From IMG/VR virus record IMGVR_UViG_3300014613_000025, positions 1 through 64,000 of that record: DNA of 64,000 bases; one strand, given 5' to 3'. A program made the position numbers and the translations under genes. This DNA is from a virus. Its lineage: Duplodnaviria; Caudoviricetes. Under the pieces are notes generated by a model, which had not been told where the DNA came from, ran no database searches, and worked only from the letters and a program-made list of their open reading frames with translations. This document shows positions 23,545 to 58,995 of this stretch, in pieces; the stretch's first letter is position 1, and each line of letters opens with the position of its first letter.

Positions 23545-25392
23545 GTGATGCCGTGGCCGAATGATTACCGTCAACCCGCGACGCGGGCAATGCCGCAACC
23601 GTCAGACGTATTCGACATCAACGCAGAACTTGAAGCGTATGGGTGCGGTCATCTGGCGGTGAAGGAGGAGCCGGTGGGACTATTGCAAGAGTGGTTTGGT
23701 GGGCCATTCGTGTGCCTGTTGTGCGGGGAGAAAAGCGTGGATGTGGTGGAGTACCAAGAGAGGAACAACGACAGATGGTCACACAACATGTTCGGCAAAC
23801 TTGTAACTGTGGCCTATGCCCCAAGAAGCGTCCGCGCTAAGTATCAGTGCTACAGTTGCGGTGCTACCATCGTGGTGGACCGATGAACCACAACCCAAAC
23901 GGCGACCCTGGTAGTCACAACCCTCGCGGCAATCCTCAACGCGGGTTGCGACTGCCAACGATTACGATTGACCTGCCGCACATCTACTTGCCACAGTTTA
24001 CGGCCTGCACGTCATGTACGCATTGCCTTGACGCCGAAGCGTGTGACGTCGCCACGTGTGACCGGCCAGACGCTTGTGCGTGCGACAGTGCCAACGGTTG
24101 CGAGTCATGCGAAGCGGGCGGCATCTGTCGCCACTGCGGCGGCAAGGACGACTATGCGGAGCGTGGCAAAGACGGACTAGTGTGTTGCTGGCAATGCGTG
24201 GATAAGGAGACGGCGTGAGACCCGTTCGCCACACGTCAACCGATGCGCTCCTAGGCCATCGGGTCGCTTTCACCGGCAGTGCTGATGTGCTTAGGTTCGA
24301 GTCGCCACGTGGCCCGGTAGACACCATGGCGAAGCAAGCGACAGGAACACTACTCAAGACGGTCGCAACCAACGGGGTGCGGCCCGATAACCGCAACGAC
24401 GCATTGTGTGCGGACCCTATCCACGAATTGCGCGAAGTGATGGCGGAACACTCCGTCAACGGGTCGTGGATGATGTCGCGACTTGCCGCTGAGAGGCTGT
24501 GGTCTCGTGCTGTGGTTGATGCGTTGTGGCCCGACCATGACGCTGGCGTGGCAACGCTGGACATCAATGGTAAACGCATATCGGTTGACGTGGCCCGCAA
24601 CGATACGCCTAAGCGCATCGCGTCCAAACTTGTGGACGCCGTCAATTCGTCGAGCGTTGGGCTCGTGGCTAGCGTTAGGAAGGAACCAGGATGACAGACC
24701 CACACAGATACCTAGTCAAGGTTGGGGATATCGTCGAGACGTATCACGACGGGAGGGCAACGGTAACCAAGGCCAAACACGAGGGCCACGTGCAATACGA
24801 CTTCGACAGCGGCGAACTGTACTACACGCTACACACGTGGGAGTCGTGGGTCAAGGCCATCGACAGCGGCGAAGTCAAGGTGATACGCGCCCTAAACGCG
24901 TCGGGTTAGTGGTATGACGTCAACCAAGTGGCCGCCGCACCCATGCTCGCGTTGCCAGTGTGAGGACTGTTGCGAGACAGGAGCGTATCGAGACTTCTAC
25001 GTGCGCAGTGCGATTGACGGGTCGTGGTGGTGCGAGGTGTGTTGGTTGTATGACGTCGAGGGTTGCAATTCAGATTGCGAGCGCCCACCGTATATTGACA
25101 TTGTCTACAGGGAGGTGTGAGCATGGGCGTCACGTTGGAAGAGTACGATAGACTTGAACGCGAGGTAAAGACCGACTACGTTCGACACACACCAACGCAG
25201 CGGTTGGCTCTTGGCCTTGTGAGGTTATCAGAACTGACGGCAGAGCAAGACATAGCGTGCACTGATGATGTGCTATACGGCCCTGGTGGTGGCCCAGATT
25301 CACACTACTTTGAGAAAGCAGACATCTTGCTATTGTTGTCGCTTGGTTGGCGCTGGCATGCAACCGTCGAGTCGTGGGCGTTTGTGGTATGA
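23545..25392 (+). CDS. run of small hypothetical ORFs (23545-23886, 23883-24218, 24215-24694, 24691-24909, 24914-25120, 25117-25392)
   Basis: coupled starts/stops; two are very Cys-rich. Confidence 0.55.
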
Positions 25393-26156: not shown

Positions 26157-27200
26157 GTGGAACGTAAACTAGCAAGCATCCAACGCATCGAATCACTGAA
26201 GCCCATAGCCAAGGCCGACGCCATCGAGTGCGCTCGCGTACTTGGATGGGATGTCGTGGTCAAGAAGGGAGAATTCCAACCCGGAGACCTGTGCGTCTAC
26301 TTCGAGATTGACTCGATGATACCGCAGGACGTGCCAGAATTGGCATTCATGGCTAACGCTCGATGGCGAGTCAAGACCATCAAGTTGCGGGGCCAATTGT
26401 CGCAGGGCCTAGCGTTACCAGTGTCCACGTTCCCTTGGTTGCGGCTCACCGACAACCCTATCGACACCGACGTATCAAGCATGATTGGCAGCGGTGTCAC
26501 CAAGTGGGAACCGGACATTCACCCGTCGCTATCGGGAGAAGCGCGCGGGTCGTTCCCTGGGTTCCTTCGCAAGACCGACGAACCACGCATTCAGTCGTGC
26601 GCCGGATTGCTGCGCAGGCATGCGGACGCGTTGTGGTATGCGACCGAGAAACTGGACGGCACATCGTTTACGGCGTACTGGTATCGCGAAGACTTTGGCG
26701 TGTGCTCGCGCAACCTCAACCTGAAACCAGAGAGCGTCAATGGCAACGACACGCGCAATGTTCACTGGCGCGTTGCTAACCGGCTGGACCTGGCAGAGAC
26801 GTTGCCAAAGTTGTGTGTTGCATACGGACGCGACCTAGCTATCCAAGGCGAAGTCGTCGGCCCTCGCATCCAAGGAAACAAGTACGGGCTAGAGGAACCA
26901 ACGTTGTTCCTGTTTGGTGTGTATGACATCGAGCGCGCTGAATTCTTGGACTTGCCAGACCTTGTCAATATGTCTGCATCACTTGGTGTCAAGCATGTGC
27001 CAATGATTGCCAACCACATAGACTTGGGCGGCTCTACTGTTAATGACCTGGTTAGGAGTGCTGAGGGTAAGTCTAGGTTAGCCGACACACAGCGTGAGGG
27101 ACTGGTCTACCGGACCACGCAATACCGCGCAGACGACAGGGCGGGCCATGCGTCGTTCAAGGCCATCAACAACAAGTTCCTGCTAAAGCACGGCGAGTGA
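26157..27200 (+). CDS. RNA ligase, Rnl2/DRB0094 family
   Basis: RKLASIQRI N-domain, ATEKLDGTS (KxDG), IQGEV.G..IQGNKY, REGLVY, FKAINNKFL. Confidence 0.92.
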   Translation: MERKLASIQRIESLKPIAKADAIECARVLGWDVVVKKGEFQPGDLCVYFEIDSMIPQDVPELAFMANARWRVKTIKLRGQLSQGLALPVSTFPWLRLTDNPIDTDVSSMIGSGVTKWEPDIHPSLSGEARGSFPGFLRKTDEPRIQSCAGLLRRHADALWYATEKLDGTSFTAYWYREDFGVCSRNLNLKPESVNGNDTRNVHWRVANRLDLAETLPKLCVAYGRDLAIQGEVVGPRIQGNKYGLEEPTLFLFGVYDIERAEFLDLPDLVNMSASLGVKHVPMIANHIDLGGSTVNDLVRSAEGKSRLADTQREGLVYRTTQYRADDRAGHASFKAINNKFLLKHGE

Positions 27201-29797: not shown

Positions 29798-30450
29798 TTC
29801 TCATCTTCGGAGGTGGGCCGATATCGGATGCGCTAACGCATGGCTTGCCGAACACGCAACGCTTGCATAGGTCAGAGGTTGACGTTACGGATCTTGACGA
29901 AGCCGCGTGGGCATTCAAAACATGGCACACCTCCACCTCCGTCATCGTGTGCGCGGCCCGCAACCCCAAACACGGCGATGCCTGGGCCTGGCGGCCTTTC
30001 CACGAGACCCACAACGACGGGGTTGACTCGTGGTCCGTCAACGTCGCCGGGTCCGCTAACGTGGCCCGTGCGGCCATTGCCGCGTGGTTGCCCAAGGGCG
30101 TGCGCGGTAGCATCGTCCTGATGGGCTCGATACACGGCGAAGTCTCGCCTGACCCGCGACTATACGACGGGGCGCACAAACCCTGGGAATACAGCGCCAC
30201 GAAAGCCGCGCTGCCTGCCCTGGCGCGATACGTCGCCGCTCACTACGGGCGAGACGGTATCAGGTGCAACGTGCTGGCCCCTGGCGGGGTCGACACGACG
30301 TCGATGCAGTCCTATGCGCATCGGTCGCCATCGGGTCGCATGGTGCCCCTACAAGGCGTCGTGAGCGCAGCAAAGTGGCTTTGCTCGCCAGACTCTGATG
30401 GCGTCAACGGGACCGTTGTTCGTGTGGATGATGGGTGGTGCGCGGTCTAA
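29794..30450 (+). CDS. short-chain dehydrogenase/reductase (PtmA-like)
   Basis: IFGGGPI, NVAG, MGSIHG, YSATK (YxxxK), IRCNVLAPGGV, NGTVVRVDDGW. Confidence 0.82.
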   Translation: MILIFGGGPISDALTHGLPNTQRLHRSEVDVTDLDEAAWAFKTWHTSTSVIVCAARNPKHGDAWAWRPFHETHNDGVDSWSVNVAGSANVARAAIAAWLPKGVRGSIVLMGSIHGEVSPDPRLYDGAHKPWEYSATKAALPALARYVAAHYGRDGIRCNVLAPGGVDTTSMQSYAHRSPSGRMVPLQGVVSAAKWLCSPDSDGVNGTVVRVDDGWCAV

Positions 30451-30791
30451 CCTTCAAGGATTGCCAACGCGGACGCGGGCCACTTGGTTTTAGCGTCCCA
30501 CCCTGGAGCGTCGTCGGCCATGCGGTAGCAAGGCACGGCCTCTCCGCCACCGTCGCCCAGTCGCAATTCAGGCACAGCCCACGTTGATGCTAGGTAGGTG
30601 TAGGATTCAACGTCTGGGATGCCATCCGCTAGGATGGTGCCTCCAGTGTAACCCCAGTCGCCACTCAACCCGGCCTGGGCATCGGTGGCCCCACGCTCTC
30701 GGATGATGCGGGCGGCCTTGTCCCAGTCGAAGACCATGCTTGGATTGCCAGCATTAGCCATGCCCATATCGAATGCTTGCCATGTGTTCAA
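30447..30791 (-). CDS. hypothetical protein
   Basis: GGAGG RBS; VFDWDKAARII...AGLSGDWGYTGG. Confidence 0.7.
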   Translation of the reverse strand: MNTWQAFDMGMANAGNPSMVFDWDKAARIIRERGATDAQAGLSGDWGYTGGTILADGIPDVESYTYLASTWAVPELRLGDGGGEAVPCYRMADDAPGWDAKTKWPASALAILEG

Positions 30792-30846
30792 TGTCTTTCC
30801 CTCCTAACCGTCGTATTCGCTAACCTTACCCTAACCACGTTTAGAC

Positions 30847-31638
30847 CTAGCGCAACCGCATGCCGCCAGCAATTTGGTTGAGGCGAGCGACAAGGTCTGG
30901 CCTACGGAATTCAACGTGAAGGTTGCCGTTCTTGAAGCAACGGAACGCGAAGTAGGCGGTCGCACCCTTGCCGGTGCCATCGAGCGGAGTCGACTCCACC
31001 GCGTTGTAGACGTCGGAGCGATAACCCTTGTGGGCAAAGCCCTTGCCGTCAAGCGCGGTAAAGACGTTTTCGAGTGCCGTTAGTTGCGCCGCACGGTAGT
31101 AGTTCACTCGGTAGTGTGTCGACCAGTCGCTGCTAACCATTCGCTCCAAGATGGCCTTGGGGCCAATCTCATATTCGCTGTTGGTCTTGTGCCGCGAGCG
31201 AACCGGGCGCAAAAAGTCGAACACCTCGCGCACGGCCTCACCGTGTATCTCGGTTAGGTTATCGGCGTACCCCCTGGCAAACGCGTAGACACTTGCCTCA
31301 GTGACGGGTGGCAATTCGCCCCGCTCCAACTGGTTATCAAGCTCCTTCGCACGCTTGACCGAGAGCATGCTACGAATCTCCAAGCGGTCGACAATCGAGG
31401 CCCAGACGTCTCGCTTCAATGCCTCGATGGTGCTTGACGGGTTGTCGAACGATACCCCACCATGCTGACGGTCACGGATGCGAATGGTGCGATGGTTGCC
31501 CAGCGAGAAGGCATCGTTGAGGCTAGTCTCAGCGGCGTGGATTGACGCGAACGCTGACTCGATGTCAGCGACAGCGCGGCGATACGTTGCCACGAGCCCT
31601 GCGATTGTCGCACGCTTAGCAAGCTCCGCTGTGTTCAT
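30847..31638 (-). CDS. DUF4942-domain protein
   Basis: C-terminal YFAFRCFKNGNLHVEFRRPDLVARLNQIA. Confidence 0.8.
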   Translation of the reverse strand: MNTAELAKRATIAGLVATYRRAVADIESAFASIHAAETSLNDAFSLGNHRTIRIRDRQHGGVSFDNPSSTIEALKRDVWASIVDRLEIRSMLSVKRAKELDNQLERGELPPVTEASVYAFARGYADNLTEIHGEAVREVFDFLRPVRSRHKTNSEYEIGPKAILERMVSSDWSTHYRVNYYRAAQLTALENVFTALDGKGFAHKGYRSDVYNAVESTPLDGTGKGATAYFAFRCFKNGNLHVEFRRPDLVARLNQIAGGMRLR

Positions 31639-31690
31639 TGGGTAGATTCTCCCCTATCGGTTGATGCGAAACGCCACGGTTACGGAAACA

Positions 31691-31710
31691 AGTGTAACAG
31701 GTGTTACACT
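31691..31710. promoter_or_regulatory. perfect 20-bp palindrome, candidate operator
   Basis: AGTGTAACA-GG-TGTTACACT in the intergenic gap above the DUF4942 gene. Confidence 0.55.
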
Positions 31711-31720
31711 TTGGAACGTG

Positions 31721-33748
31721 TCAGGCAACGATGCCACGCAACGAGGTGAACGCCTTGGCGAGCGAGACATCAACCGCTTGGCGTACCTCGTCCGGTTCGC
31801 GGTCTAGCGCATTCCAAACGGATTCGTTCGCACGGTTGAACCCTTCGAAGTCGCCGGTGCTAGCCAACGCGAGGTTGGCTGTTAGTCGCGCGATGTACCA
31901 CGCTACGGCATCGTTAGTACTGATAGGCATCGGTCAACCTGCTTTCTTTTCGGACTTCTCCGCTAGTTCCAAAGAGGCAAGCGCGAGGTATAGCAACTGT
32001 AACGCGTTGGACAGTTCAACCTTGCCGGTCTCAGTGATGGGCCGCATGCCCCGCAATGCCTCGATGGTGCGCACGGTGTTGTCGATTGCGTCGTCGATGT
32101 TCATTCGGCCCATCCTTTCACGGTCTCAAGCGCTTCATGGTGCCCTCAGCAGTTGCAATGCGTGTGCCAATCAGGCCGTGCTTCCCACCAGCCAAAGTTC
32201 AACCACGGTCTCAAGCGCTTCCGTCAATGCCTCGTGCCTCGTTGCCCCTGCGCCGATGATGTCGCCATCAAAGTCCAGTCCTGGGTCCACAACGAAGTAG
32301 CGCGGCAACCCTTCCTTGACGCCATCTGCATCCGTCTCTTGGACGTCGATGGCCGTAACGCCTAGCAGGTTGCAAAGCGCGCATCGGGTGTCGTCGATTG
32401 TGTGGGTGTTGTTCTTCATGGTGCTCTCAGTAGTTGCAAGTGCGATGCCACAGTTACCGGCCACGATAGGGCGAACTTGAGACGGTAGGCCGCTGCCCCC
32501 CGCCGTTGTCGTTGTCATGTGCGGCGGCATACCAGCCCTCGCGTTCGAGGTTCGACTTGGGGTTGTCCAAGTCTTGGATGGCTTCCCACATGACCCACAT
32601 GACCCAACCGTGGTGCCTGCGCTCGTTATCCTGATTCGTCATGGCGACTCCTGCCGGGGTCACCGCGACCCCGTTGTGCGGGTTGGGGTTATGCGTCGAG
32701 TGCGTACTCCGCTGCGCAAGCGCGGCACATGGTCTGGCCGTCGAGGTATCCGCCTTCGGCACGGACCGGCGACTGGCCCTCTTGCGGTTGCAGGATGCGA
32801 CCACAAGCGCAGCGGAACGCGCGGGCGGTTGCACCACGGTAGGCTGAGACCACCGCGTCAGCGTGGGCATCGGCATCGTAGCGGGCTTGGATTTCGGCGT
32901 GGGTCGCGTCTCGGTTGCTGTTGTTTTGGTTCTTCATGGTACTCTCAACCTTTGCAATGCGTGTGCCAGGTTCAGCCGCCCATCTGTTCCGCTGACTCGC
33001 GCGCTTCGTTCTCGGCAGCCGCAAAGCGGAGAGCTTCGGCGACACCCTTCAGCGCGCGCTTGCTGCCCCGGAGTGCTCGTCCACACATCCTGACCTGCGC
33101 GTCGTCGCCGAACCGGTTGGCCTCGTCGCGGAGTTTGCAGATTTGTTCGTAGGTGGGATTGCTGCTGTTGGTCTTGCTGGTCATGGTTCGTGTCCTCCTA
33201 CGGCCTCAGGCCGGGAACCGCGAAGGCTACCCGGCCGGGGTTGGGGTTGGAGAGAGCCTATACGGCTACCGTGTATCCGTTGCGCTTAGCGTGGCGGTTG
33301 ACGCCTTCGACCCATTCCTGAGCCGATTCTTCCGACACGAAGTCCATCGTGCTTTGGATGGTGATGCCTTCGAGGTTGCCAGAGATGAAGGTCTGGGAGA
33401 AGGTGAGGGTGTAGGGGTAGGGGTTGCTGCTGTTGTTTTGGTTTTTCATGGTACCAATTCCTAATGCAAACGCGGTGCCAATCAGGCCGGGGTGTGCGCG
33501 CGGACGAGAGCACGAACCGTGTTTTCGTAGGTTGCCGTGAAAACCCAGATGGCGGCATCGTAATCGCCAGCGAAGGTAGCCTTGGGGAATTCAACCTGAA
33601 ACGACTGCCAAAGGCCCATGCTCATATCGGTATCGGGTTCGTCTCCGCTAAAGACGCAGTAGTTTACGTGATCTTCCGCAGCGTCGACTGCGAACTTGAT
33701 GACGCGAGCGGTTGTCTTGCCGATGTCGTATTGGGTGATGTTCTTCAT
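31721..33748 (-). CDS. block 1 small ORFs (33482-33748, 33258-33449, 32972-33184, 32689-32937, 32454-32642, 32171-32419, 31934-32104, 31721-31930)
   Basis: starts fixed by a sigma54 motif 17 nt upstream or by an SD; no recognisable domains. Confidence 0.7.
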
Positions 33749-33779
33749 GGTGCCCCCAACCTATGCACTCCGCATGCCA
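32154..33779 (-). promoter_or_regulatory. block 1: five sigma54 (-24/-12) promoters
   Basis: 32154-32169 TGGCACACGCATTGCA; 32435-32450 TGGCATCGCACTTGCA; 32953-32968 TGGCACACGCATTGCA; 33465-33480 TGGCACCGCGTTTGCA; 33764-33779 TGGCATGCGGAGTGCA. Confidence 0.88.
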
Positions 33780-33846
33780 CGCGCAACCCGAAAGCGTAAA
33801 CGCCTAGAACGAGGCTGCGCCGCGCATATCATTGCGCCGCCAGACC

Positions 33847-34236
33847 ACGACTTTGAAGTCAGGGCCATGCAAACTTTGCCGATTCGTCCAAAAGTGTATG
33901 GTCACTATTTGGCCTTGTCCTTAGAAACAAGCGGTATTGCGTTTGGTTGCGCGGATAACAACCATGGCATCCATGTCATGGTGTGCGAAAACGTCGGGGT
34001 TTTGGGGGTAACTTCAGCAGTCCTAATGTTACCGCGAGACGCTACCGGGGCCAGCGCTGACCATGACATCCATGTCATAGCGGATGGCCCCCAAACGCGC
34101 GATGCTCGGTAAACGTAGGCTAACGTCCCCATGACATCCATGTCATAGCAAACCGGGTCGGCCTTGCCATGCTGCGCGAATACATGCGCAGCGATAGCGT
34201 TTTCGCGTTGCAGGGCGACTATGACATTGATGTCAT
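33847..34236. repeat. palindrome cluster A: 5 x A(T/C)G(A/G)C-N6-GTCA(T/G)
   Basis: copies start at 33847, 33964, 34063, 34131, 34221. Confidence 0.85.
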
Positions 34237-34481
34237 ACCCATGAACCATGCCTAGAAAACGTCTCTCCGGGTCAACCGCTGGCTTGGTGCTCCACCCTCG
34301 CCGCGCAGGGTGGCCATGATGGCGAGGACATGCGCTATCGTATCGCGAGCCGCTTGTGTCTCGCACACGTCGGGGTCGGACGCTATCGGGGTTATCGCGT
34401 TCGCAAGCTCAGCCGCTAGGTCCGCCGCGTTGAAGGGCCGCTCGCTAGCGATACGCCTAGCGGCGTGGATGCCAACCAGAC

Positions 34482-37400
34482 TCACGACGGCCCCGCAGTG
34501 CCGCGAGGTTGGCTGTAGCGGGATTCCGCTACCGCCCCGGCGCAAGCGTCGCGAGCGAACCGTTGGGCCACCTCTGACGGGTAGCTGCCCCCGTCATCGA
34601 GGTACACCCCCAACGCTATCTCGCATAGCTTCACCTGTTCAGTGTCGCCAGCCATGGCGGCTTCGTTGAGCAAGTCGCCAATCTGTCTGTCCGTCACGTA
34701 GTTTGATCCCATGTTATTCGTCCTTCTCGGTTGCTGAGATGGCCTTTGATAGCGCCAGCGCGGTGTGCAGGATGGCGACCTGGACAAGTTCTCTGCCTTC
34801 AGCGGTAGACGGTTCGACCTTGTGTAACGCGTCCAGTGCCTCGTCCAGCGCCGCTAGCGCGGTAGCGTGCGGGGTGTGGTCCGTGGTCATGACAGACGGT
34901 CCCATCCGCCGTTGCGCCGCTGGATTTCGACACGACCCCACGCGTCGTCAAAGTAGGGGCGCATGGCGCGAGCGAGCGCACGCTCCGCGCTTGTCACGGA
35001 CTTGGCGCGCGTCGCGATGACGTGGCCGACATCGTTACCAGTCTCGCCCACTACCAACCGGAAGGTTGAGCCGTAGGCTTCGTTGGGGTCGTTCTTGTTC
35101 GTGGTCATGTTCGTGGTCTCCTTGTCTCTCAGCGTTGCAAGCGTTACGCCAACTGCCAACCCTTGGGCAAGTCACACGGCAAGAATTCCGCGTTACCGGC
35201 AACGATAACCCCGACCGTTGGGCTCGCGACGCAACCGCACGCGCCGTCGCCAAAGGGCGACCCGTCCCACGGCACGACGCTAACGAGGTCAGCACTAGCG
35301 TTGTGCGCGCACACCTCCGCAACGTCTCGCGACTCGACCATCACACACCACTCGTTCGCGCTTGGTCCTTCCAGGTCGAACCAGATTGCATCATCGCAAG
35401 CGAGTCCGTTAGGGTCTCCGCCGCGAAGGGTGGCGATGTGGAGCGCGCTGGGCTTGGTTGTCGTTGTCATGTTCGTATCCTCCTACGCGCCTAAGCCTGC
35501 AAGGCGTGAGCCAAGCAGGCGAAGCGGTGTGGGTTGTGGTTAGAAATTGTAATCGTAGTACTTGTGCCTCGCTCCGATGGTAACGCGTTCCGTGCTGCGC
35601 GACACTCGCCAAGTGCCATCCTTGCGGAGCGTGGCCTTGGTGGTGGGGCCATCCAAGTCTCGTTCGTAGGAGTAGCGCTGGACGCCTTCAGTATGGCCGA
35701 AGAACCCACCAGGTGTGAACGTCAACGCGTCAGGTTCGCCGGAATTGAAGCCGTTGAGCAGGGTGGCCTTGTCGCGCTGCAACGTGATTGTCTTGCCGTT
35801 AGCCGACACGGCGATGACGGTTTGGGGAGTGGAGTCGCTGTAGTGGTGAATGGTGGCACCGTCACCAACCGCAGGCTTGTTCCGCGCCAACCGCATGGCC
35901 TTAGTGAACGAACCTCCGCAATCACAGACAATATTTCGGACGTCCAATACTGATGGGGTGCGCCCGTGGCGCTCCATGGTAGCGACGATGATTTCGCGCA
36001 GCGAAGCGGTAGCGATTGACGGGTATGTCCAGCGCAGTAGGTAGTCCTCGCACAGTTCGTCAACGCGCTCGTTCTGGGTGTCGGTCAAGGTTGTCGTTGT
36101 CATTGTCGTTGTCCTCCTACGCGTTACCTTTGCAATTCTAGTGCCACCGCTACGCCCTAGCCAAGAATCCTTTGCGGATTGCCAGGTACGCTTGCGACTG
36201 TTCGTTGCGGCCATGCTTCGCACACGTTGCAGCCATACGGCCAGCGGCATCGGCAGCCATCATGGCGGCATCAACCGAGCCGTTGTAGCGGGCGAGTGCA
36301 AAGACCTTGGCTGCGCGGGTTGGCGTCAAGGAGCCGCTCAGTATCTCTTTGATTTGGTCGATGTAGTTCATGACATCTTACCTTTGCAATCCTCGCGCCA
36401 ACTAGCGCCCGGTGTGCCTGAGATACCAGCGGACCGCGCCCGATTGAGTCTTGAACGTCTTGCTGACGGTAAACGTCATGGCGAGCCAAGTGCCGTCCGG
36501 TTGCGCGAAAACGCCGCTCGACAGGCTCTCGTTGTTGCCCATGTCAAGGGTCCGGTTCGTTACGGTCGGGGTTGTCGTTGTGGTCTTCATGATGCTTTCC
36601 TTCGGTGCAAACCTGATGCCAACCGCTACACTTCGACGATGACGCAATCGCCATTGTCGATGGCGCGCACGAAGCTGGCGGTAGCACTGTTGGCCCAATA
36701 CGAGCCGCAGTTTTCGAGGTAGCGCGAGAACACGCCAGCAAGTTGGGCAGACCTGAAAGTCTTGCGTGCGCGCTTGCCATTGATGGGGTCCGTGTAGCGG
36801 ACCGTGGTGCGTCCGGTACGGGTTGTCGTGGTCTCGATGTCGGCGTTGTATTGAGTCGTCATGATGCTTGTTCCTTATGCGAGCGGCGTGCCAATCACTC
36901 CCACGAACCGTTACGCGTTCGGGTCAAGCCAACGGAGCGGCGGATGCCGTTGCTCGCGCGAGCCCTGGCGTTACGTGCGTTCCGCGCCTTGTCCTGCGTT
37001 GCCGCTTCGGTGCGTGCGCAAGTGCGTCCAGACTCGGTCAACGAAAGGTAATCGGCGTCGAATACGTCGCCTTCTGCGAGGCCGTAGGCCACAAGTGCGC
37101 CGAGAGTCTCCCATCCGCATCGCGGGGTCTGGTTGAGGTAGAGGGCCAGGAGTGCATCGCGCTGGGTTCTGGTGAGCTTATTCATGGGAGATTCCTTATG
37201 CGATACTTGTGCCAAGTGGTCTAGCCGTTGTGGCGATGGCCGCTGCCGTTGCAACGGTAGCAGCAACCGCCGTTAATGTGGCGGTACTCAGGCAGCACAC
37301 CAGTCCCACCACAGCGCGGGCACTTGGCGGCTTCGCGCTCTGCGTTGGCGACTGCTGCCTGAACCTGGTAAAGCGCATCCAAGCGCGTTTCCGTGGCGGA

Positions 37401-37857
37401 ATCCATGGCCTTAGAGGTGGTCGCCATCAACAGGGCCAGCGGGTCGAAGGGTGCGGATGCATCGTAGGAGGCGTCAAGCGTCGGAGCGAAAGCAGCGCGA
37501 ATCTCGGCGATACGGTCGGCGATGGCATCGGAACCGGTTGCGATTGCCATTAGGTCAGCAACCACTTCGTCGTCGAGTGCGAGGAGGGCGGTGTTTTCGT
37601 TGGCGTTCATGATGATAATTCCTAATGCTAGATGCGTGCCAACTTGGCTAGCGAGCGCGGCGAGTCTTGCGAGTGGGCATCGTCAATTCGATATCGTCCA
37701 CCGTGAGGGTATTGACGGCCTTGGTGGTATTGAGCCAGCGGACGCAGCGGTCGCACATGCAACGCCCCGCATCTTCGGAATCCATAAAGCAGACGTTGGT
37801 TCCGTAGGTGGGGTGGTTGGTGTCGATGGTAACGTTGGCGTGTTCTGCGTTCGTCAT
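34482..37857 (-). CDS. block 2 small ORFs (37648-37857, 37221-37610, 36895-37185, 36626-36862, 36402-36590, 36150-36371, 35540-36103, 35144-35470, 34887-35108, 34714-34890, 34482-34712)
   Basis: nine have their own sigma54 motif; 37221-37610 ends in a CPRCGGTG...CYRCNGSG zinc ribbon. Confidence 0.7.
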
Positions 37858-37888
37858 GGTGCTTCGACACAATGCAACAGCGATGCCA
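35136..37888 (-). promoter_or_regulatory. block 2: nine sigma54 promoters
   Basis: 35136 TGGCGTAACGCTTGCA; 35498 TGGCTCACGCCTTGCA; 36131 TGGCACTAGAATTGCA; 36385 TGGCGCGAGGATTGCA; 36606 TGGCATCAGGTTTGCA; 36878 TGGCACGCCGCTCGCA; 37199 TGGCACAAGTATCGCA; 37626 TGGCACGCATCTAGCA; 37873 TGGCATCGCTGTTGCA (16-bp, lower coordinate given). Confidence 0.88.
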
Positions 37889-37978
37889 ACCAGACAACCT
37901 AGCCCAACCGCATATCATTACGCTGGCACTGCACGGAACCACCGATGTTCAGTGCTTTGGCGGGGCTGAAATGTATGG

Positions 37979-38443
37979 TGCCATACATGCAGGACTAAAC
38001 GTATGACTTCAATGTCATAGGGCCTTTAGCGCTTTGATTCTCGATGAAACGTGACGCCAAAGGGGAATGACCATACATGTAGGAGCAAACGTATGACTTG
38101 AAAGTCATAGGGCCAAACCGTCACGATGTGCCTAGAAAACAAGCGTGGCGCGCAAAGCGTGGCTGAATGACCATACACGTAGGAGCAAACGCATGGCGCC
38201 GTGGTCATACTGAACAAGGCCCAACCCCATCGAGCGGACCTTGGCGCCGTGGTCCGATGTCGAATGTTCGCGTTGGCCTTGTTCTGTAGCGTTTAGCGTT
38301 CGTTGGGCCACGAGTCCGCAACGTTTGCATACCACCACGACATCAAAGTCATAGGTGTTTCGGGTTCGCGGAATGCCTTGAATCGTAGCGGCAAGCGCGG
38401 CGTGACCATACATGCAGGAGCAAATGCATGACTTCAATGTCAT
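37979..38443. repeat. palindrome cluster B: 5 palindromes, four embedded in a ~45-bp direct repeat
   Basis: palindromes at 38003, 38093, 38193, 38337, 38428; unit GACCATACA(T/C)G(T/C)AGGAGCAAA(C/T)G(T/C)ATG(A/G)C-N6-GTCAT. Confidence 0.85.
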
Positions 38444-38617
38444 GGTGCTGTGTGGGATAGCGTGTGGGCTGGTGGCAACCTGTGGGAGCTATTCGTTGAC
38501 AGCGTGGAATAGTGCGGCGTTTTGGACGGTGGGCCATTGCTGGGCCAAGGATGGGCCTAGGACGCGTCGGGGTGGCGCCATGGCATCCAAGGCCAACCTG
38601 TGGCCGAAAGGGCCGTC

Positions 38618-41600
38618 CTAGGCCAACGTCGCGCGCCAATACCAGAGACCGCGCGCGCCGGTTGACTGGTAGAATACCTCGCCACGGTCCCCAACGTCTC
38701 CGTGGGTTGGAGCGCCGATACCGTGCAGGTAGTATCGTTCGCCATCATCCGCGCGGATTGTCCAGACGTAGGCGTTATAGTGGCAGGGTTTGCCTACGAT
38801 GGTAGCTGGTTTGCCTGTGGGCGAAATGTCAAGGTAAGCCTGGGCCAACCTAACCATGTTGGGCGCTCCGGGTATTGCGTGAGATACCAGATACTCTGCC
38901 AATTGCCTGGGTGACATGTCGTCGGGGTCGATTGGATTATTCTGTTCCACTATTCCTCCTTACAGGCTCAGATAAAGGCCGGTCTCATCGGTGAACAAGG
39001 TCTTCAACCCATCGGCGTAGATGTCGCTATGCGCGCTGCGCTTGGTTGCCTTGCCGCCACGGACCGTCCAGAATTCAACGGTGTAGGTGTCGCTAGGGTC
39101 CAAGCGAACCTTGACCATGTTTGACTTGTTACGGGCGCGCGCCTTGAACCGGAATGACGCGGTGTCCTCCGTCCCGAAGAACGATGACGCGCCAAGCATG
39201 GCGGAGAGTCGGCCCGTGCCGCCCATCTGGGCTAGGATTGTGTTTGCAACTTCGAGGTTGGTTTGCGTTGTCATGATGCTTTCCTGTCTTGCACGAGCCG
39301 TGCCATCACTTGCTGGCGAGGTAGGCAACCACTCGGCGCAGGTCGCGTGCGCCAAGGGATCCGAACCTGTCAGCGATCCATCCGCCGTCCGAGTCGCTAA
39401 CGCTAGCGCTCGTTCCTTTGCCGCAAGCGGAAGGGGTTACGGTAAGCACTGCGTCAGCCGGAACCTGGCGCACGCGAACCTTGGTCCCCTCGTAGCAACC
39501 CGCGTTGACGTAGGCGAGCGGTTGGCCCCAAAGGGCGGAGCAGAGGTCAGCGGCTGAGACGGTGATGGGGTTGGTGAAGTTCGTCATGGTGTTGGTTCTC
39601 TTTGCACGAGCCGTGCCACTAACGCAGCATGCCCCGCGTGGCATGCGCCAGCGGGGCGGTTGGCGTGGGTTCTGGCTACACGCTCTCGGCCACTTCCTGC
39701 AAACGCCGCATCCAATACGCCTTCTCTTCCCTGCCGCCAATCACCATCTCATTGGCTGCGCGGCAAGCCTCAACGTGCGAGTAAAACCCGCACTCGCCAG
39801 CGTTGGGCGCGTTGGCAACGAGGGAGGCGAATCGGGCCTTGCCAGCAAGGATGCAGCGTTCGGATTTGGCGATCTGGTTGGTGATGTAGGTTGCGGTATT
39901 CATGGTTCGTGTTCTCCTTGCCAGATAGCAATGCACTCCGCGTGCCAACCGCTACCAGTCCTCCAACCACTCGATGGTGGCCCCGTCTTCCAGCAAGGCC
40001 CACGGGCGGCCATCGTGGTAAACGAGCACGAACCAAAGATGCCACTCGCCGATTTTGTTACACACGTGAGGGCGGCCCATGATGTCGCTGGTTTTGATGT
40101 AGTCGGAGCAAGCGGCTTGGGTCGTGAAGGTCATGGTATTCATGGTGCTTGGTTCCTTTGCGAGACTCGTGCCAATGTCTACGCTATCCTGAGACCTGAC
40201 ACCAGCCTCTGGTTCGCTCGGCTGTAGGTGGCGGTGCTGACTCGGTCAAGCTCTGCCTTTGCCGCTGCATCGCCAGTCCACGCCTTCGTTGTCTTGTCGA
40301 ACGCGAATCCGCAGTCGCGGAGCAGTTTCGCTGCGGGGTAGGTGTTTCCGGTGATGGTGACTGTGTTCTCGTTGTTCATGATGACTCTTCCTTATGCACT
40401 CAGCGTGCCAATCATGCCCAGGTTTCGGTGCAGAGTACCTCGAACCCATTGACGCGACCCTTGCTGTCAAGCGATTCGCGCACCAGTCGGCGGACCTTGC
40501 GGCAAGTGTTGGTCTCCCAGAAGCAGCGGTATTCGACGGTCGGGGCCACGGTCGACTTGGTGTTGTTTTGGTTCTTCATGGTACAAGTTACCTTTGCACG
40601 CGTCGTGCCAGGTTCAACAAAACTAACCGTTCAGCATCCCCAGATCCAGATCTGGTAAGTGTTCAGATTGCCGTGTTCATGCAGATATTCGAGCGCATCG
40701 GCGAAGTCTTCGCGCGTCCAATCGAGCACGCGGATCGCTATCGATTCGTTCGAATAGCGCGGCTTGCGCGTTAGCATCTTTCCGTAGTCGTCGAGGTTCC
40801 ACTCACCTCCCCTGGCTCCTCGTTCCAACAACGCACGCAAGCCACGGGGGGTAAAAGCCCAGTAGTGATCGTACTGCTGAACGTATATTCTAGACATTGC
40901 AGCTATCTTCCTTGTCCAACCTAAGTTCCGTCGCTACGATCCTGCGAATGTAGGCTTCAATTTGGTCCCGCGATGCCATCCCAGGAATCCCTAGCCGCGT
41001 GGCTATCGTGCGGCGATCTTCGTCAGTTACCTCGACCAAAACTCGAATTTTCATGTCCCCCCCTACGCTCGGCAAAGGTGGACCCAGATCGACTTGATCG
41101 TCCACGTCCCATAGTCGGCATCGTCTACCATGTCCAAGTCGAACATGCGGTCGACCACGGCGTCCGAAACCCGGCGCTCCCACACGGGCCGAGCGGAGTC
41201 GAAGATCGACCACATTTTCTCGCCAAGGCCCGGCCTCATCAGAGTGACGGTCCCAGTACACTCCGCGAGGGCCTTTCGCAATCCGGCGGGTAGGCGAGCG
41301 GGGTTGTTGTCTGTGCCCGCGGTGCGCTTGCTCGTGCTCTTCATGGTTCGTGTCCTCCTGCTTGTTATCATTGCATTCAGCGTGCCAATCACTCCCCGCA
41401 GAATCCGTCGTCGCATAGACAAGCCGTTGCGTTGCCTTTCGCCCAATCCTTGGCCGCCGTCAAGGCTCGGAACCACTTGCTCTTACCATTGTCCAGGCAC
41501 ACTTCGTATTCGGTCCCATGGATTTGGCTTACAAGCACCGTGATTGTTCCCTCGCTATTCCCATCGATGGCGACGTCAATCCGTGCGCTTCCGTCCCAGT

Positions 41601-41897
41601 TGGTGACCTTGTCTCCGAACGTGACCTTGTTTGTTTGAGTCTTCATGGTACAAGTTACCTTTGCAGGACGTGTGCCAACCTGACGGCTCACTCGAATTCG
41701 GCGAACAGGTCAGGTTCGCCATCGGCGTCCACCGGGCGACCCTGGGCGACCCAATCGGCCTTGAATGCAGCGTGGCAAGCGGCAACGCGAGCGGATTCCG
41801 CTGCATCCGCGCGTCGCTCCTTAGCGGTGCGGTAGTAGTTCGCGGGGTTGCTGATGTAGGCGTGGACGTCTGCGAAGCTGGTTTGGTTGTTGTTCAT
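38618..41897 (-). CDS. block 3 small ORFs (41688-41897, 41389-41646, 41063-41344, 40890-41054, 40631-40897, 40412-40579, 40179-40379, 39952-40143, 39676-39903, 39306-39587, 38960-39274, 38618-38950)
   Basis: nine have their own sigma54 motif; 40412-40579 (55 aa) is not in the ORF track; 38960-39274 (ANTILAQMGG...VRLDPSDTYTVEF) resembles a widespread phage/ICE hypothetical. Confidence 0.7.
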
Positions 41898-41928
41898 GGT
41901 GCAATCCTACCTAGCACGCACTGTGCCA
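39290..41928 (-). promoter_or_regulatory. block 3: nine sigma54 promoters
   Basis: 39290 and 39603 TGGCACGGCTCGTGCA; 39932 TGGCACGCGGAGTGCA; 40159 TGGCACGAGTCTCGCA; 40395 TGGCACGCTGAGTGCA; 40595 TGGCACGACGCGTGCA; 41372 TGGCACGCTGAATGCA; 41662 TGGCACACGTCCTGCA; 41913 TGGCACAGTGCGTGCT. Confidence 0.88.
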
Positions 41929-41997
41929 ATACCCCAACGACACCGCGAAGCGCTACGTCTACCGACGAAAGCGCGTTCCACTGAGTGGATTCATACC

Positions 41998-42331
41998 ACG
42001 ACTTTCAAGTCGTGCCTGTGCAAAGTTTGCCGGTTTGGCCAAAAACGTATGGTCACTGTTCCGCGATACGCTATGAAACAAGGGTTAGCGTAACTTGCGC
42101 ACACCTGAACACCGCACGACTTTCAAGTCGTGGTGTTGCTGGCATGCCTTGTTTTGTGGCGTTTGGCAAAGGGTACAAGTAATGCTGGTACCCTTGGGGC
42201 CACGGCCCGCAACGGTGTGTGCGCTTGGTAGGACATGTGCGCTTGCCATGGCGTCAATGTCATACTGAACAAGCCAAACCGCACGACTTGCCGTAACCTG
42301 TAGGCTTTAGCCACCACGACTTCGATGTCAT
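41998..42331. repeat. palindrome cluster C: 4 copies
   Basis: 41998 and 42116 ACGAC-TTTCAA-GTCGT; 42248 ATGGC-GTCAAT-GTCAT; 42316 ACGAC-TTCGAT-GTCAT. Confidence 0.8.
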
Positions 42332-42441
42332 GCTGAACAAGCCCCAATGGTGCACGGTTGTTGTGTTTGGCTTTAGTTGTGCGGATATCGTGGTAGGCGG
42401 CGGGTATGGCGTGGATGTCGTGGTGGGTGTGCGTTCAGTGT

Positions 42442-43524
42442 CTAACCGACGATGCGCAACCCGGCATCGGCGACCATGGCCCGCACGATGTCAAGCGGAA
42501 GGTTGACCACCGCGACGCACCAGCCGTATCCGTAGCGCGTACGGCCCTCGTATTCATCGAAGCCAATCCGGCGCAGGGCGCGGATAGCAACGCCACGAGA
42601 CGTCGCCTCAACCTCATATTCCCCAGCGGTATCCTGGTGGCTCAACTTGGTCGCAAGCGCACGGACTGCCTTGCGTGTCGAGTCGTCTCCGGTCAAGGTC
42701 GCGAGGCAATCGCCACCCATGGGACCGTGCGAGGTCAGGAAGACGTTGCCAATCCTCGCGCCGCAGCACACGCATGAGATGTTGGCAAAGGTTCCGCCAA
42801 GCGCTTCCAGGGCCGCTGGCGAGCCAGCAACCGCGAATCCTTCGAGGGCCACGCCGTCAAACTTGTCGCGGATCTTCTGGGTAAGTCGCATCGTCGTCTC
42901 CCTCTTCTCGTTGTCCTTGGTCGCAACCGTTGGAGTCGAACCAACCTTATACCACAATCACCCTGGTGGGCGCTCGCCGGAGCCTTTTCGTTGTGGGCTG
43001 CGATGCTTGGTGAGTATGCGAACGGCGTGCCAAGCTATGCGGCACGCTGGCTTTCCAACAGCGCTAGCCGCCAATACGCGGCCTCAAGCCGCTCGCCCAC
43101 ACGGAGGCCGTGCCAGGTGTGGGTTACGCCAGCGAACCGCCTATTGTTTAGGTCGCGAATCTCGACCTTGAGGTCAAGGATGCGACGTTGGATAAGCTCA
43201 GGAGTCATGCGGGTTGTGTTCGTCATGGCTCTACTCCCATGCACTCAGCGTGCCAAGCGCTCAGCGCGTTACCCTGAACCCCTGCGAGGTTGCGTTCAGG
43301 TAGACGTTCTCGGCGGCGATGCGGCAGTTGTTGCGGTGCGTTTCGGCATCGAGCAGAGCTTGCGGCCACTGCTCAGGTACACCGGCGCAGATCGTAGCGT
43401 ACCGCAGCGCATTGTATGCGTGAATGGCCTTATCGTAGGCTTTCGTCGCCTTGTTCATGGCAACCTTGGCAGCGCGCGCGGTCGGGAAGGTCTTGGTCTC
43501 GGCGGGGTTGGCTTGGTTCGTCAT
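42442..43524 (-). CDS. block 4 small ORFs (43261-43524, 43035-43226, 42442-42891)
   Basis: two have own sigma54 motif; the third has a GGGAG SD downstream of the tRNA-like RNA and CVCC...GGDC cysteines. Confidence 0.7.
42918..43002 (-). ncRNA. CCA-ended tRNA-like RNA without D or anticodon arms
   Basis: acceptor CGCAGCC/GGTTGCG + A + CCA; T arm GTTGG-TTCGACT-CCAAC; 5' end 16 nt below the -12 element of promoter 43017. Confidence 0.75.
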
Positions 43525-43555
43525 GGTGCAAACCCACTATGCACGCACCATGCCA
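43017..43555 (-). promoter_or_regulatory. block 4: three sigma54 promoters
   Basis: 43017 TGGCACGCCGTTCGCA; 43240 TGGCACGCTGAGTGCA; 43540 TGGCATGGTGCGTGCA. Confidence 0.88.
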
Positions 43556-43623
43556 CGCAACACAAAAACGCGAAACGTCTACTCCCACAGGGACAACGTT
43601 GTTACACTAAGTAGATTCACACC

Positions 43624-44023
43624 ATGGCATTCAAGTCGTGCTATTGCAAAAGTTGCGTGATTGACCCAAAAGTGTATGGTCATTCCAAACGCGTCCTCAA
43701 CGTTTCCGACATGTTGCGCGCCTAGTGAGTCATTCTTGACCCATGGCAAAACGGTCCTGGTCTGCACGAAGTGTCTTGTTTTGTAGCGGTTTGCGAAACG
43801 TGGCGGGCTAGGTCTGCCAGGTGTCGGGTTGTCGCGGCGAGACGATAGCCAACGGCCTACCATGACAGCGGTGTCATAGCAAAACGTCACATTAGCGAAT
43901 CCTTCGAGGTTTACGCTATGACATTGAAGTCATAGCATCGAGGTCCAAGACGGCTACGATGTGCTGGCGTGGCTTGTTCTGTAGCGATTGAGGTACGCGT
44001 GGCGGGTATGACATTGATGTCAT
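43624..44023. repeat. palindrome cluster D: 4 copies
   Basis: 43624, 43862, 43918, 44008 (last is TATGACATTGATGTCATA). Confidence 0.85.
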
Positions 44024-45005
44024 AGGGTCTTGGCGGAGCGAAGGATTCGCGACGAAAGCGAGGTCAGCGCGTCACGGACCTTGCCGTCGCCATCGTCGTC
44101 CGCGCTATTGACGGCGTCAATTAGTCGCGACCATGCGGCTTCCTCTGCTCCCTCGTTGACGTGTAGCACGCCTGCGGCATGGTCGAACGTGCCAGGAAAC
44201 GGCTCGTAGTCGCCGTCAAAGGCCAGGCAATCGTCAAACGCGGGGTCGAATACATAGATGGTCAACCCGCACGCCTGAATCTCGCCTACGCGGAATGTCG
44301 CCATCAGATGCCGCGACGCGCGCGCTCCTTTTGGAACAAGGACAATTCGGTGAGGTATCTTTCGCCGCCCATGCGCTGAACCCAGCTATTCGTGGCGGTA
44401 ACGGTGAGCAGTCCTTCAAGAGCGAGGGAGCAGTCGCGATGCGACCACACCAGCTCGGAGTCACTCATCTTGCGGATGCGGTCGGCGATGCGCTTGGTTG
44501 CCTTGTCGGTGTTCTTCATGGTGCTTTCCGAGTATGCGAACGCTATGCCATCGTTGCCGTAGCCTCAAAACCGCCAGGCTCGACACCCAAGCCATGACAC
44601 GAATGTCATACCTAAACGCCGTTTCGCGATATTCGTGAGGTTTTCGCTATGACATTGGTGTCATGCTTAGGCGAGCGGTTGTCGGCTCGCTTCGCAATGT
44701 GCCTTTATTTGTAGCGATTATGCGCGGAGCGGGTGGTATGACATTGGTGTCATGGCAGGCTGTGGTCATGCGTACATGGCGGCGTTCAAGGCCAGCCACG
44801 CTGCATCCACATGCGCGTTCAAGGTCTTGGCGTAGAGCCAGCGCGCCATGTTCACAGCCTTGCGGCTAGGCTTGCGGCTGCTGCTAGTGACGCACTGGAT
44901 CCTGATCTCACCCAGGCAATCACAGGCGAACAAGTAGCCCCCGACTGTAACCGTCATGGGTGCGCCGCTGCCGTCCGAGTAGACTTCGATTGCTGTGGTT
45001 TTCAT
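44020..45005 (-). CDS. small ORFs 44766-45005, 44304-44519, 44020-44304
   Basis: first two start 14 and 17 nt below sigma54 motifs. Confidence 0.65.
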
Positions 45006-45122
45006 ACCATCCTGCCTAGCACGTCGCATGCCAACGGTCCCAAACCCGTCCGCTAGCGCTTGACCATATCTCGCCGTTCCCCTCCAGCGGGAGTGACCCA
45101 AACCTGTGCACGTCGCATGCCA
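44535..45122 (-). promoter_or_regulatory. three further sigma54 promoters
   Basis: 44535 TGGCATAGCGTTCGCA; 45018 TGGCATGCGACGTGCT; 45107 TGGCATGCGACGTGCA. Confidence 0.82.
44594..44753. repeat. palindrome cluster E: 3 copies
   Basis: 44594 ATGAC-ACGAAT-GTCAT; 44649 and 44738 ATGAC-ATTGGT-GTCAT. Confidence 0.85.
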
Positions 45123-45165
45123 AGGTTGGCGGCTGACCGGACCTAAACGCATTGGGCCTGGTGGT

Positions 45166-45767
45166 ATGAGTGAACCCAAACCAGGTGAACGGCCCGACGT
45201 TGAAGGCGTCTTTGAACGACTCCGCCAACGGTTGGATGACATTGTGCCGATGCCACGCAAGACAGTCGAGGTGCTTGCCACGCTGCTAGGTGGCCTTGAC
45301 GCTAGGCGAGAGGTCAGATGGCGCAAGCGTGAACATCGAGTCAAGAACCGCAACGAACGGCAACGGCGCGCACTGTCGCGCAGGAAGGCGAGACGATAGC
45401 AATGCAACAGAGACCAGCAAAGGAGCACGATACCATGGCATGCACGAAGCGTATCGCGAAGGCTGCGAAGCACTTGGACAAGGCCGCCGACCTGTTGGAC
45501 GATGCCATTGACGACTACTACAACGAGGAGGTTGGTCAACGTGTTCCCACGCGCGAGGACGTTATCGCGCATGCGGCAAAGGCCATCCTAGACAATGTGT
45601 CAGCGCGCGGTGCCGTGGTCCTGTTCGGCCAACGTGACAACTGTGTGGCATTGACTGACACTGGGCCACTTCGCGCATCGCCTGCGGCCCAGATAGCTTC
45701 GCTGCTAACACTGGCCGTGCGCGAGGCAATCACGCAAGCGTATCAGGAGGCCAACGGCGATGACTGA
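45166..45767 (+). CDS. two hypothetical proteins (45166-45399, 45435-45767)
   Basis: first starts 24 nt after CCTAAAC; second has AAGGAG RBS and overlaps the cytidylyltransferase start. Confidence 0.55.
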
Positions 45768-58097: not shown

Positions 58098-58995
58098 ATG
58101 ACATACGGTGCAGTCCCGTCGTTTGGCAATATGCCGCAAGACGGCTTTCACAAGACGAACAATATCGCCAGTTGCGTTGAAGACCTTGGGTCTTTGGTGG
58201 GCTATGTTCCGGCCTCTGGTTCCACGCGAATCCCGCCCGCTGGCGGCACTACCACGCTGGCACTTGCGGACGGTTGCCTGCGAACCATCTCGACGGTAGC
58301 GATTGCCACTGGCATGACGCTCGCCATTCAGACCACTGGCGCAGTGCAAGGACAGCGCTTCGTGATTGCGAAGATCTCCACTGCCGGGACGGGCGCCGTT
58401 ACTATCGACCTCAAGGCGTCGACTACGAAGAAGAAGTTCAACGCCGAGTTGATGTTTGTCAACGGCGCATGGCGGCTAATCAGCCATTACGAATACGCGT
58501 GATGGCTATGGCTGAGACGTTCTGGGAGATCGTTGATGGCGAGTGTCGCAACTGCGACTCCTGTGGAAAGTCTCAGCCGATTGGTGCGACTGTCAAGTAT
58601 GTGGCAAACGGGAATCTAATCGAGTCCCTGACGTGCGCCGCATGCGAAGGCAATACCCCGTCATGGTCAGAACGTTTGGTGCCATACAGTGGGCACAAGG
58701 CATACTACCTGCTTGGACTTCTCAGAGATCTGCGGCCAGTGCTTGAATGCCCAGGCAAGCAGAATATCATGCAGACGAAACACGGCAGGGTATTGGAACT
58801 GCGTAGTATGGCCGACGAAATCGAACAAGACCTAACTGCCAACGGGTACCACCTATGACTGACAGAGAGGCCGAATTGACTGCGGAGGTTGAGGCACTGC
58901 GTGAACGAGTGGCGGCCCTTGAGGCACAGTTGCGCAATGCCAAGAACGCAGCGGCGCAGGTTGGTGGTCAAGCGTCCTGGTATCAGACTCGCTAA
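58098..58995 (+). CDS. three hypothetical ORFs (58098-58502, 58502-58858, 58855-58995)
   Basis: coupled; first is beta-rich and possibly structural; second has CxxC pairs. Confidence 0.55.

Follow-up and report, generated by a model that had tools for sequence, protein, structure and literature searches.

Five large gaps lacking credible open reading frames interrupt a dense block of small minus-strand genes in the IMG/VR viral contig IMGVR_UViG_3300014613_000025, and each holds copies of one palindrome upstream of sigma54-type promoters. What purpose do these palindromes serve, and which protein would read them? The window analyzed here is the first 64 kb of this 73,113-bp linear contig (G000; ~58% G+C), and the block comprises ~40 small genes running on the minus strand from ~45.1 kb down to 31.7 kb. 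We think it fairly probable, on comparative grounds, that the five gaps, here called modules A to E, are sigma54 enhancer arrays, that is, multi-copy imitations of the site of a host activator placed before blocks of sigma54 promoters. The phage thus seems to have copied a host enhancer and to use it to run ~29 small genes.

An earlier note on this DNA had described the gaps as free of credible genes, and codon statistics bear this out, removing the case in which they would be protein-coding. Across the five gaps (215–729 bp), the best frame has a codon log-odds of ≤0 and carries 1–6 stops, compared with log-odds of 0.14–0.23 for the adjoining genes; module A scores −0.008 and has stops in every frame. 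RNA or sigma70 elements were also considered and ruled out, as the region gave no Rfam match and no excess of sigma70 promoters or of terminators. Judged by sequence, a single module recurs in diverged form in all five gaps:

33780–34251, minus strand: module A, five dyads, bounded by the upstream gene's stop (34252) and by the next block's first promoter
37889–38617, minus strand: module B, a non-coding gap with five dyads, one of them weak
41929–42441, minus strand: module C, five dyads, a paralogue of module A
43556–44019, minus strand: module D, a non-coding gap with four dyads
44551–44765, minus strand: module E, a short gap with three dyads, resembling the distal half of D

The palindrome ATGAC-N6-GTCAT (ATGACNNNNNNGTCAT) matches exactly at 12 places in the window, where shuffled sequence predicts 0.04, and at 23 places with at most one mismatch, where 2.0 are expected. 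All 21 copies assigned to five clusters by the earlier note are present at their coordinates with no more than two mismatches. From these 21 sites a symmetrized 20-bp matrix was made, with the consensus C(T/C)ATGAC(A/T)T-NN-A(T/A)GTCAT(A/G)G, and scanned across the 73-kb contig. This yielded 22 dyads, 21 of which score at least 19 bits, every one inside the five clusters. The cluster sizes previously given stand for A, B, D, and E (5, 5, 4, and 3), but C has five members rather than four, through an extra site at 42406–42421. Proximal sites in A and C are variants of the ACGAC/GTCGT type, and D1 has the GTCGT half only. Listed from the promoter-proximal site outward in each module, the dyads are:

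33847–33862: A1, promoter-proximal, ACGAC...GTCAG variant, 21.9 bits, 67 nt from the promoter at 33779
33964–33979: A2, 26.6 bits
34063–34078: A3, exact, 30.5 bits
34131–34146: A4, exact, 30.5 bits
34221–34236: A5, exact, 31.1 bits, 16 nt from the stop codon of the upstream gene
38003–38018: B1, proximal, exact, 30.1 bits, 114 nt from the promoter at 37888
38093–38108: B2, exact, 27.9 bits
38193–38208: B3, degenerate, only 10.0 bits
38337–38352: B4, 28.4 bits
38428–38443: B5, exact, 29.7 bits
41998–42013: C1, proximal, ACGAC...GTCGT variant, 23.0 bits, 69 nt from the promoter at 41928
42116–42131: C2, 22.7 bits
42248–42263: C3, 23.5 bits
42316–42331: C4, 27.3 bits
42406–42421: C5, 19.0 bits, new relative to the earlier list, with the same 90 spacing as A4–A5
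43624–43639: D1, proximal, 22.6 bits, 68 nt from the promoter at 43555
43862–43877: D2, exact, 23.2 bits
43918–43933: D3, exact, 30.9 bits
44008–44023: D4, exact, 30.8 bits, overlapping the stop codon of the gene at 44304–44020
44594–44609: E1, proximal, exact, 26.6 bits, 43 nt from the promoter at 44550
44649–44664: E2, exact, 27.6 bits
44738–44753: E3, exact, 27.3 bits

Read in the direction of transcription, dyad spacing is 90, 68, 99, and 117 nt in module A, followed by 67 nt to the promoter; 91, 144, 100, and 90 nt in B, then 114 nt; 90, 68, 132, and 118 nt in C, then 69 nt; 90, 56, and 238 nt in D, then 68 nt; and 89 and 55 nt in E, then 43 nt. Conservation extends beyond the dyads. Module B contains, at 37981–38449, a 44-nt repeat in four units, where ACGTTTGCTCCTACATGTATGGTCA flanks the dyad. 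In A, C, and D, TGTATGGTCA recurs on the opposite strand beside the proximal dyad, next to a small palindrome, GCAAAGTTTGC.

Within the gene block, 29 minus-strand sites fit the sigma54 consensus TGGCA(C/T)-N5-(T/G)TGCA, each lying just upstream of the start codon of a small gene. GG and GC are invariant in all 29 and stand exactly 10 nt apart. The distance from GC to ATG is 16 nt in 17 cases, 13–14 nt in four, and 28–29 nt in five, and in these last five a Shine-Dalgarno-like purine run (AGGAG or AAGGA) lies between the two. The count of 5, 9, 9, 3, and 1 promoters in the blocks below A to E was confirmed, and two more were found upstream of E. The first promoter of each block is as follows:

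33765–33779, minus strand: first promoter below A (TGGCATGCGGAGTGC), with its ATG 16 nt after the GC
37874–37888, minus strand: first promoter below B, sigma54-type
41914–41928, minus strand: first promoter below C, sigma54-type
43541–43555, minus strand: first promoter below D, sigma54-type
44536–44550, minus strand: promoter below E, sigma54-type

For modules A, C, and D, the placement of the proximal dyad at about −94 to −111 likewise held, with its edge 67, 69, and 68 nt, respectively, from the T of TGGCA; the corresponding site falls at −141 to −156 in B and at −70 to −85 in E. No dyad overlaps a −24/−12 element or a start site, the closest edge being 43 nt upstream of TGGCA. The promoters furthest to the right (45122 and 45033, both TGGCATGCGACGTGC) have no upstream dyad, and module E lies downstream of the gene that they drive. 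An apparent match between the 69-aa gene below module B and genes of two other phages, G001 and G002, was discarded as an artifact of translated shared promoter sequence.

The same pairing of dyad and promoter recurs in other phages. IMG/VR was scanned for two dyads 44–74 nt apart with no promoter condition, and in 10 of the 22 loci returned (from seven contigs) an outward-facing TGGCAY-N6-TGC lies no more than 150 nt from a dyad, against ~0.13 by chance. The complete 99.5-kb genome G001 (67.6% G+C) has all 10 of its exact dyads within 5.5 kb, where they stand among 16 promoters of the form TGGCATG-N4-GTGCtataa...ATG, and its proximal dyad-to-promoter distance is 67 nt in two instances, the same as in the window. 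G002 (93 kb) has five clusters of three dyads, 66–79 nt apart, directly upstream of sigma54-type promoters; three of the five lie between divergent promoters, and the dyad–promoter distance is 62–64 nt at several. A scan requiring both dyad and promoter returned additional phage contigs spanning 36–68% G+C.

No structural protein is common to G000 and G001, G002, or G005, the three large contigs compared, and no protein family is common to all phages carrying the system. There is no Sigma54_activat domain in G000 or in the complete genomes G001, G003, G008, and G009, and no HTH_8 or other DNA-binding Pfam domain in G000, G001, or G003; in a Pfam scan, the 39 proteins of the minus-strand block (30447–45005) gave no DNA-binding domain and matched DUF1391 and DUF4942 only. 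A cis-element pair common to phages with no common trans-factor points to readers in their hosts. The sole block protein common to G000, G001, G002, and G005 is phrog_9437 (104 aa; 39274–38963, minus strand), which was rejected as a dyad binder, as a 57%-identical homologue is encoded on a phage contig (L184) with neither dyads nor sigma54 motifs.

Several further arrangements of these motifs were seen among the phages. In a second group, of 39–59 kb, TGGCAC-N5-TTGC motifs form tightly packed arrays (G009, 31496–31700 and 33173–33213, L175; G008, 42580–42850, L173; G003, 26731–27037, L035) that adjoin dyads 19–43 bp apart, mostly 21–23. Arrays in G009 and G003 include convergent motif pairs that make up 33- to 34-bp palindromes; convergent overlapping sigma54 promoters are implausible as promoters, so these may be traps for the sigma54 holoenzyme or sites for another protein. 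In G002 (L030; e.g., 25305–25335 and 31585–31615), the palindrome GCATACTAAGTATGC directly follows most sigma54-type promoters of the dyad region, overlapping −12 to +1 and the ATG, and could form a 5′ hairpin or act as an operator in its own right. Lastly, two viral contigs (L001 and L002) and many Alteromonadaceae genomes (L038, L052–L054, L059, L061, L092, L125, L134, and L156) carry a pair of ATGACA(A/G)CG(C/T)TGTCAT dyads 63–67 nt apart; these pairs have no sigma54 motif near them, and this is a different conserved element with the same outer half-sites.

If the readers belong to the hosts, the arrangement might be expected on bacterial chromosomes. In a bacterial scan with the dyad pair alone, CRISPR repeats, tandem repeats, and a conserved but unrelated element of Alteromonas made up most of the matches listed. 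Among the matches listed, 3 of 120 loci had a sigma54 motif within 150 nt, and all three were in metagenome-assembled genomes (MAGs) labeled "Deltaproteobacteria". A search for the pair of ATGACA-N4-TGTCAT and TGGCAY-N6-TGC separated by 55–85 nt was then made in 401 genomes from the phylum to which one of these MAGs belongs. The phylum is probably Myxococcota, as suggested by the presence of FHA-type activators. The earlier note had proposed to check whether candidate host genomes carry the dyad near sigma54 promoters; in this phylum, the pair was found in 8 of the 401 genomes and the reversed control pattern in none. One of 401 Pseudomonadota genomes also had the pair, seemingly inside a gene.

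At one of these chromosomal loci (L188), the dyad starts 3 nt past the stop codon of a gene for a bacterial enhancer-binding protein (bEBP) with GAF, Sigma54_activat (E = 5e-75, GAFTGA present), and HTH_8 domains. The full-length form of this candidate activator, 616 aa at L202:1027–2877, has the order FHA-GAF-AAA+-HTH_8 and scores below every NCBIfam equivalog cut-off. Of 151 genomes from the phylum, 117 have a match to it at 43–82% identity, in single copy in all but two, and a named Sorangium genome carries a 61%-identical orthologue; no orthologue was found in a Smithella MAG, a low-G+C "delta" MAG, or a Paraburkholderia genome. By eye, a dyad-like (A/C)TGACA-N4-TGTCAT site lies at or just after the activator's stop codon in ~15 of the 20 closest orthologous loci, 6 of these sites being within one mismatch in an automatic scan, and in several loci (among L197–L216 and L188) the TGA stop itself falls inside the dyad. 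In ~14 of the 20 (8 by automatic scan), there is a sigma54 promoter-like motif ~70–120 nt beyond the dyad. The host dyad CTGACATCCATGTCAT (L212) has a core identical to that of dyads A3 and A4. Four host loci also have a CACTTA(A/G)-like element 14–20 nt upstream of TGG, and CACTTAG recurs in the modules of G001. Taken with the phage loci, this gives strong comparative support to the earlier proposal that the dyads may act as upstream activator sites, as a fixed-distance pair of dyad and −24/−12 element is present both in phages with no structural genes in common with this one and on chromosomes beside a conserved activator gene.

The best candidate for the reader is the predicted FHA-GAF-AAA+-HTH_8 family, encoded directly upstream of the host arrangement. 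Each 20-bp dyad would be bound by a Fis-type helix-turn-helix in dimeric form, likeliest the C-terminal domain of a host bEBP, and bound dimers would nucleate an active AAA+ ring. Through DNA looping, this ring would remodel the closed complex of sigma54 and RNA polymerase at the first promoter, ~100 bp away, and it might also serve the remaining TGGCAY-N5-xTGC promoters in that leftward block. What the modules copy would be a native host arrangement of dyad, 62–85 nt, and −24/−12 promoter. As an FHA-GAF protein, the candidate activator is probably wired to Ser/Thr-kinase signaling. A wider proposal, which we put forward tentatively and rate below even chances, is that phage lineages with no structural genes in common each built enhancer–promoter cassettes mimicking the target of one conserved host sigma54 activator, so that dozens of tiny genes, expressed as near-leaderless single-gene transcripts, are joined to host signaling without a phage transcription factor.

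A number of observations weigh against the enhancer interpretation. Dyads within an array are 55–144 bp apart, mostly ~68 and ~90, and with spacing this wide compared with classical pairs, assembly of one ring would need tight loops; each dyad may seed its own oligomer, or bending proteins may take part. The proximal dyad stands at a different distance in B (114 nt) and E (43 nt), and for 24 of the 29 promoters, those internal to the blocks, the nearest dyad is more than 150 nt away, requiring either activation over 0.3–3 kb or firing from solution. Nor does the enhancer reading account for further conserved module sequence (TGTATGGTCA, GCAAAGTTTGC, and CGCTACAAAACAAGGC). On the host side, the putative link between activator and dyad is drawn solely from their adjacency, and the Sorangium orthologue has no dyad, so that the activator–dyad arrangement appears common rather than universal. 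Prophage relatives of the portal protein in the candidate phylum are only ~30% identical and uninformative on the host of G000. The dyad–promoter system is also present in phage contigs of 36–43% G+C that are unlikely to infect Myxococcota, and related activator–dyad pairs therefore probably exist in other phyla. Finally, small HTH_8 proteins encoded by two of the phages could themselves bind the dyads and compete for them: G002 has stand-alone Fis-type proteins at 33408–33776 (plus strand, inside the sigma54 region) and 17809–18117 (minus strand), and G005 has a protein with two HTH_8-like repeats at 69558–69977 (plus strand), ~1.6 kb past the last dyad of its region.

The last of these points leads to the possibility that the phage itself encodes a small protein for which the dyads serve as operators, and that this DNA-binding timer or insulator shuts off, delays, or separates the blocks, for instance by competing with the host activator. 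The stand-alone HTH_8 proteins just described would suit such a role, as might some of the ~40 tiny block proteins of unknown function, and multi-site arrays with sites 55–144 bp apart do look like cooperative repressor arrays. We nevertheless judge this unlikely, given that G000, G001, and G003 encode no HTH_8 or other DNA-binding Pfam domain, that the phages with the system have no protein family in common, and that the same dyad stands beside an activator gene in bacterial chromosomes. The earlier note's alternative of plain repressor operators is further disfavored by the absence of any dyad overlapping a −24/−12 element or start site. A new phage-encoded sigma54 activator recruited by the dyads, either without a recognizable AAA+ domain or encoded on the missing ~22% of the contig, is a distinctly unlikely reader in our estimation. 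The contig is estimated as 78% complete and many G000 proteins have no family assignment, which leaves room for such a protein, but four complete genomes carrying the system have no Sigma54_activat domain at all and no protein is conserved across the phages. We also know of no sigma54 activator without an AAA+ domain.

A non-transcriptional role for the clusters, whether in partition (parS-like), replication, packaging, or pausing of injection, with their place in intergenic gaps a coincidence, seems to us highly improbable. In some linear plasmid-prophages, such as phage N15, scattered groups of palindromes act as centromeres, and G001 encodes a ParB_N-methylase fusion. Partition or injection sites, however, would not keep a fixed distance to −24/−12 motifs across genomes with no common structural genes, as these dyads do in the phages and at chromosomal loci, and this favors the enhancer reading over the parS-like and injection-site alternatives raised in the earlier note. 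Five clusters inside one 11-kb transcription region are ill-suited to an origin or pac site, the sites are inverted repeats in separate clusters rather than the iterons of an origin, and no ParB or partition gene occurs among 25 of the 37 matched Pfam families of G000.

The proposed enhancer arrays can be set beside known systems. Upstream activator sites of the NtrC family (NtrC at glnAp2; NifA at TGT-N10-ACA) are likewise 16- to 20-bp dyads in small groups, centered ~100 bp upstream of GG-N10-GC, clear of the bound polymerase and in some cases flanked by divergent promoters, a layout also seen in G002. They differ in that classical pairs lie 2–3 helical turns apart, whereas the phage sites are separated by 55–144 bp, and here one array precedes up to nine promoters in a phage with no encoded activator. 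E. coli RtcR and PspF were considered as readers and rejected, the regions upstream of rtcB and pspA having no such dyad. To our knowledge, ATGACA-N4-TGTCAT matches no activator motif, and a literature search gave no paper connecting an activator with this dyad. In 2005, Jelsbak, Givskov, and Kaiser reportedly described Myxococcus enhancer-binding proteins with FHA domains; the candidate reader resembles them in combining FHA, GAF, sigma54-AAA+, and HTH_8 domains, with an orthologue at 61% identity in Sorangium, and we found no published binding site for its orthologue group.

On the phage side, the late promoters of T4 are served by a mobile enhancer, the sliding clamp gp45, and there too many promoters are activated from few DNA entry sites. 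T4, however, relies on nicks, a tracking clamp, and its own sigma-like proteins, in contrast to the sequence-specific dyads and host-type −24/−12 promoters seen here. No phage-borne enhancer arrays, nor ~29 sigma54 promoters in one phage region, were described in the literature searched. For use of host sigma54 promoters by a phage, there is a parallel in Pseudomonas phage YuA, for which one mapped promoter region was linked to sigma54 (Ceyssens 2008, as cited in PMC10914365). The present region differs in its 29 promoters, almost one per gene and with start codons 14–16 nt below the GC, and in its dedicated enhancer arrays.

What would follow if the enhancer reading is correct? Early and middle transcription in phages is usually ascribed to sigma70 promoters, phage polymerases, or phage sigma-like factors. 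Driving ~29 genes from host sigma54 promoters with a copied host enhancer would be a different take-over strategy, one in which a signal-sensing activator of the host would govern whether and when the genes are expressed; more speculatively, sigma54-driven phage transcription might escape measures directed against sigma70. For a conserved, uncharacterized activator of a bacterial phylum, the comparison also yields a putative binding motif and some of the candidate target loci, and the dyad–promoter pair could act as a host-prediction marker for uncultured phages. Compact enhancer–promoter cassettes with start codons 14–16 nt below the GC could be of use as synthetic-biology parts.

The remainder of the contig gives the setting of the block. 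G000 is estimated to be 78% complete by CheckV, with ~22% missing. Megablast with the region gave no match to known phages, an IMG/VR search based on the portal gave no relative, and the closest terminase is only ~41% identical. Head and packaging genes lie to the right of the block:

55286–56668, plus strand: terminase
56685–58091, plus strand: portal
58995–60950, plus strand: 651-aa protein matching major head protein and head-protease families

The DUF1391 match (E = 3e-23) comes from one of the 39 minus-strand block proteins; we take this family to be one of enterobacterial prophages, presumably an odd fit with a Myxococcota-like host. Elsewhere in the phage (including 45760–50234 and 20295–20372), Pfam matches to NeuB, a cytidylyltransferase, and an MptE-like protein make up a nonulosonic-acid pathway, alongside two radical SAM proteins and matches to B12-binding and SPASM domains. 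An RNA ligase, Thg1, and a cREC receiver domain (RNA repair) are also encoded, as is a tRNA-Thr(CGT) gene. At 45003–45402, the leftward sigma54-driven block diverges from a rightward enzyme operon.

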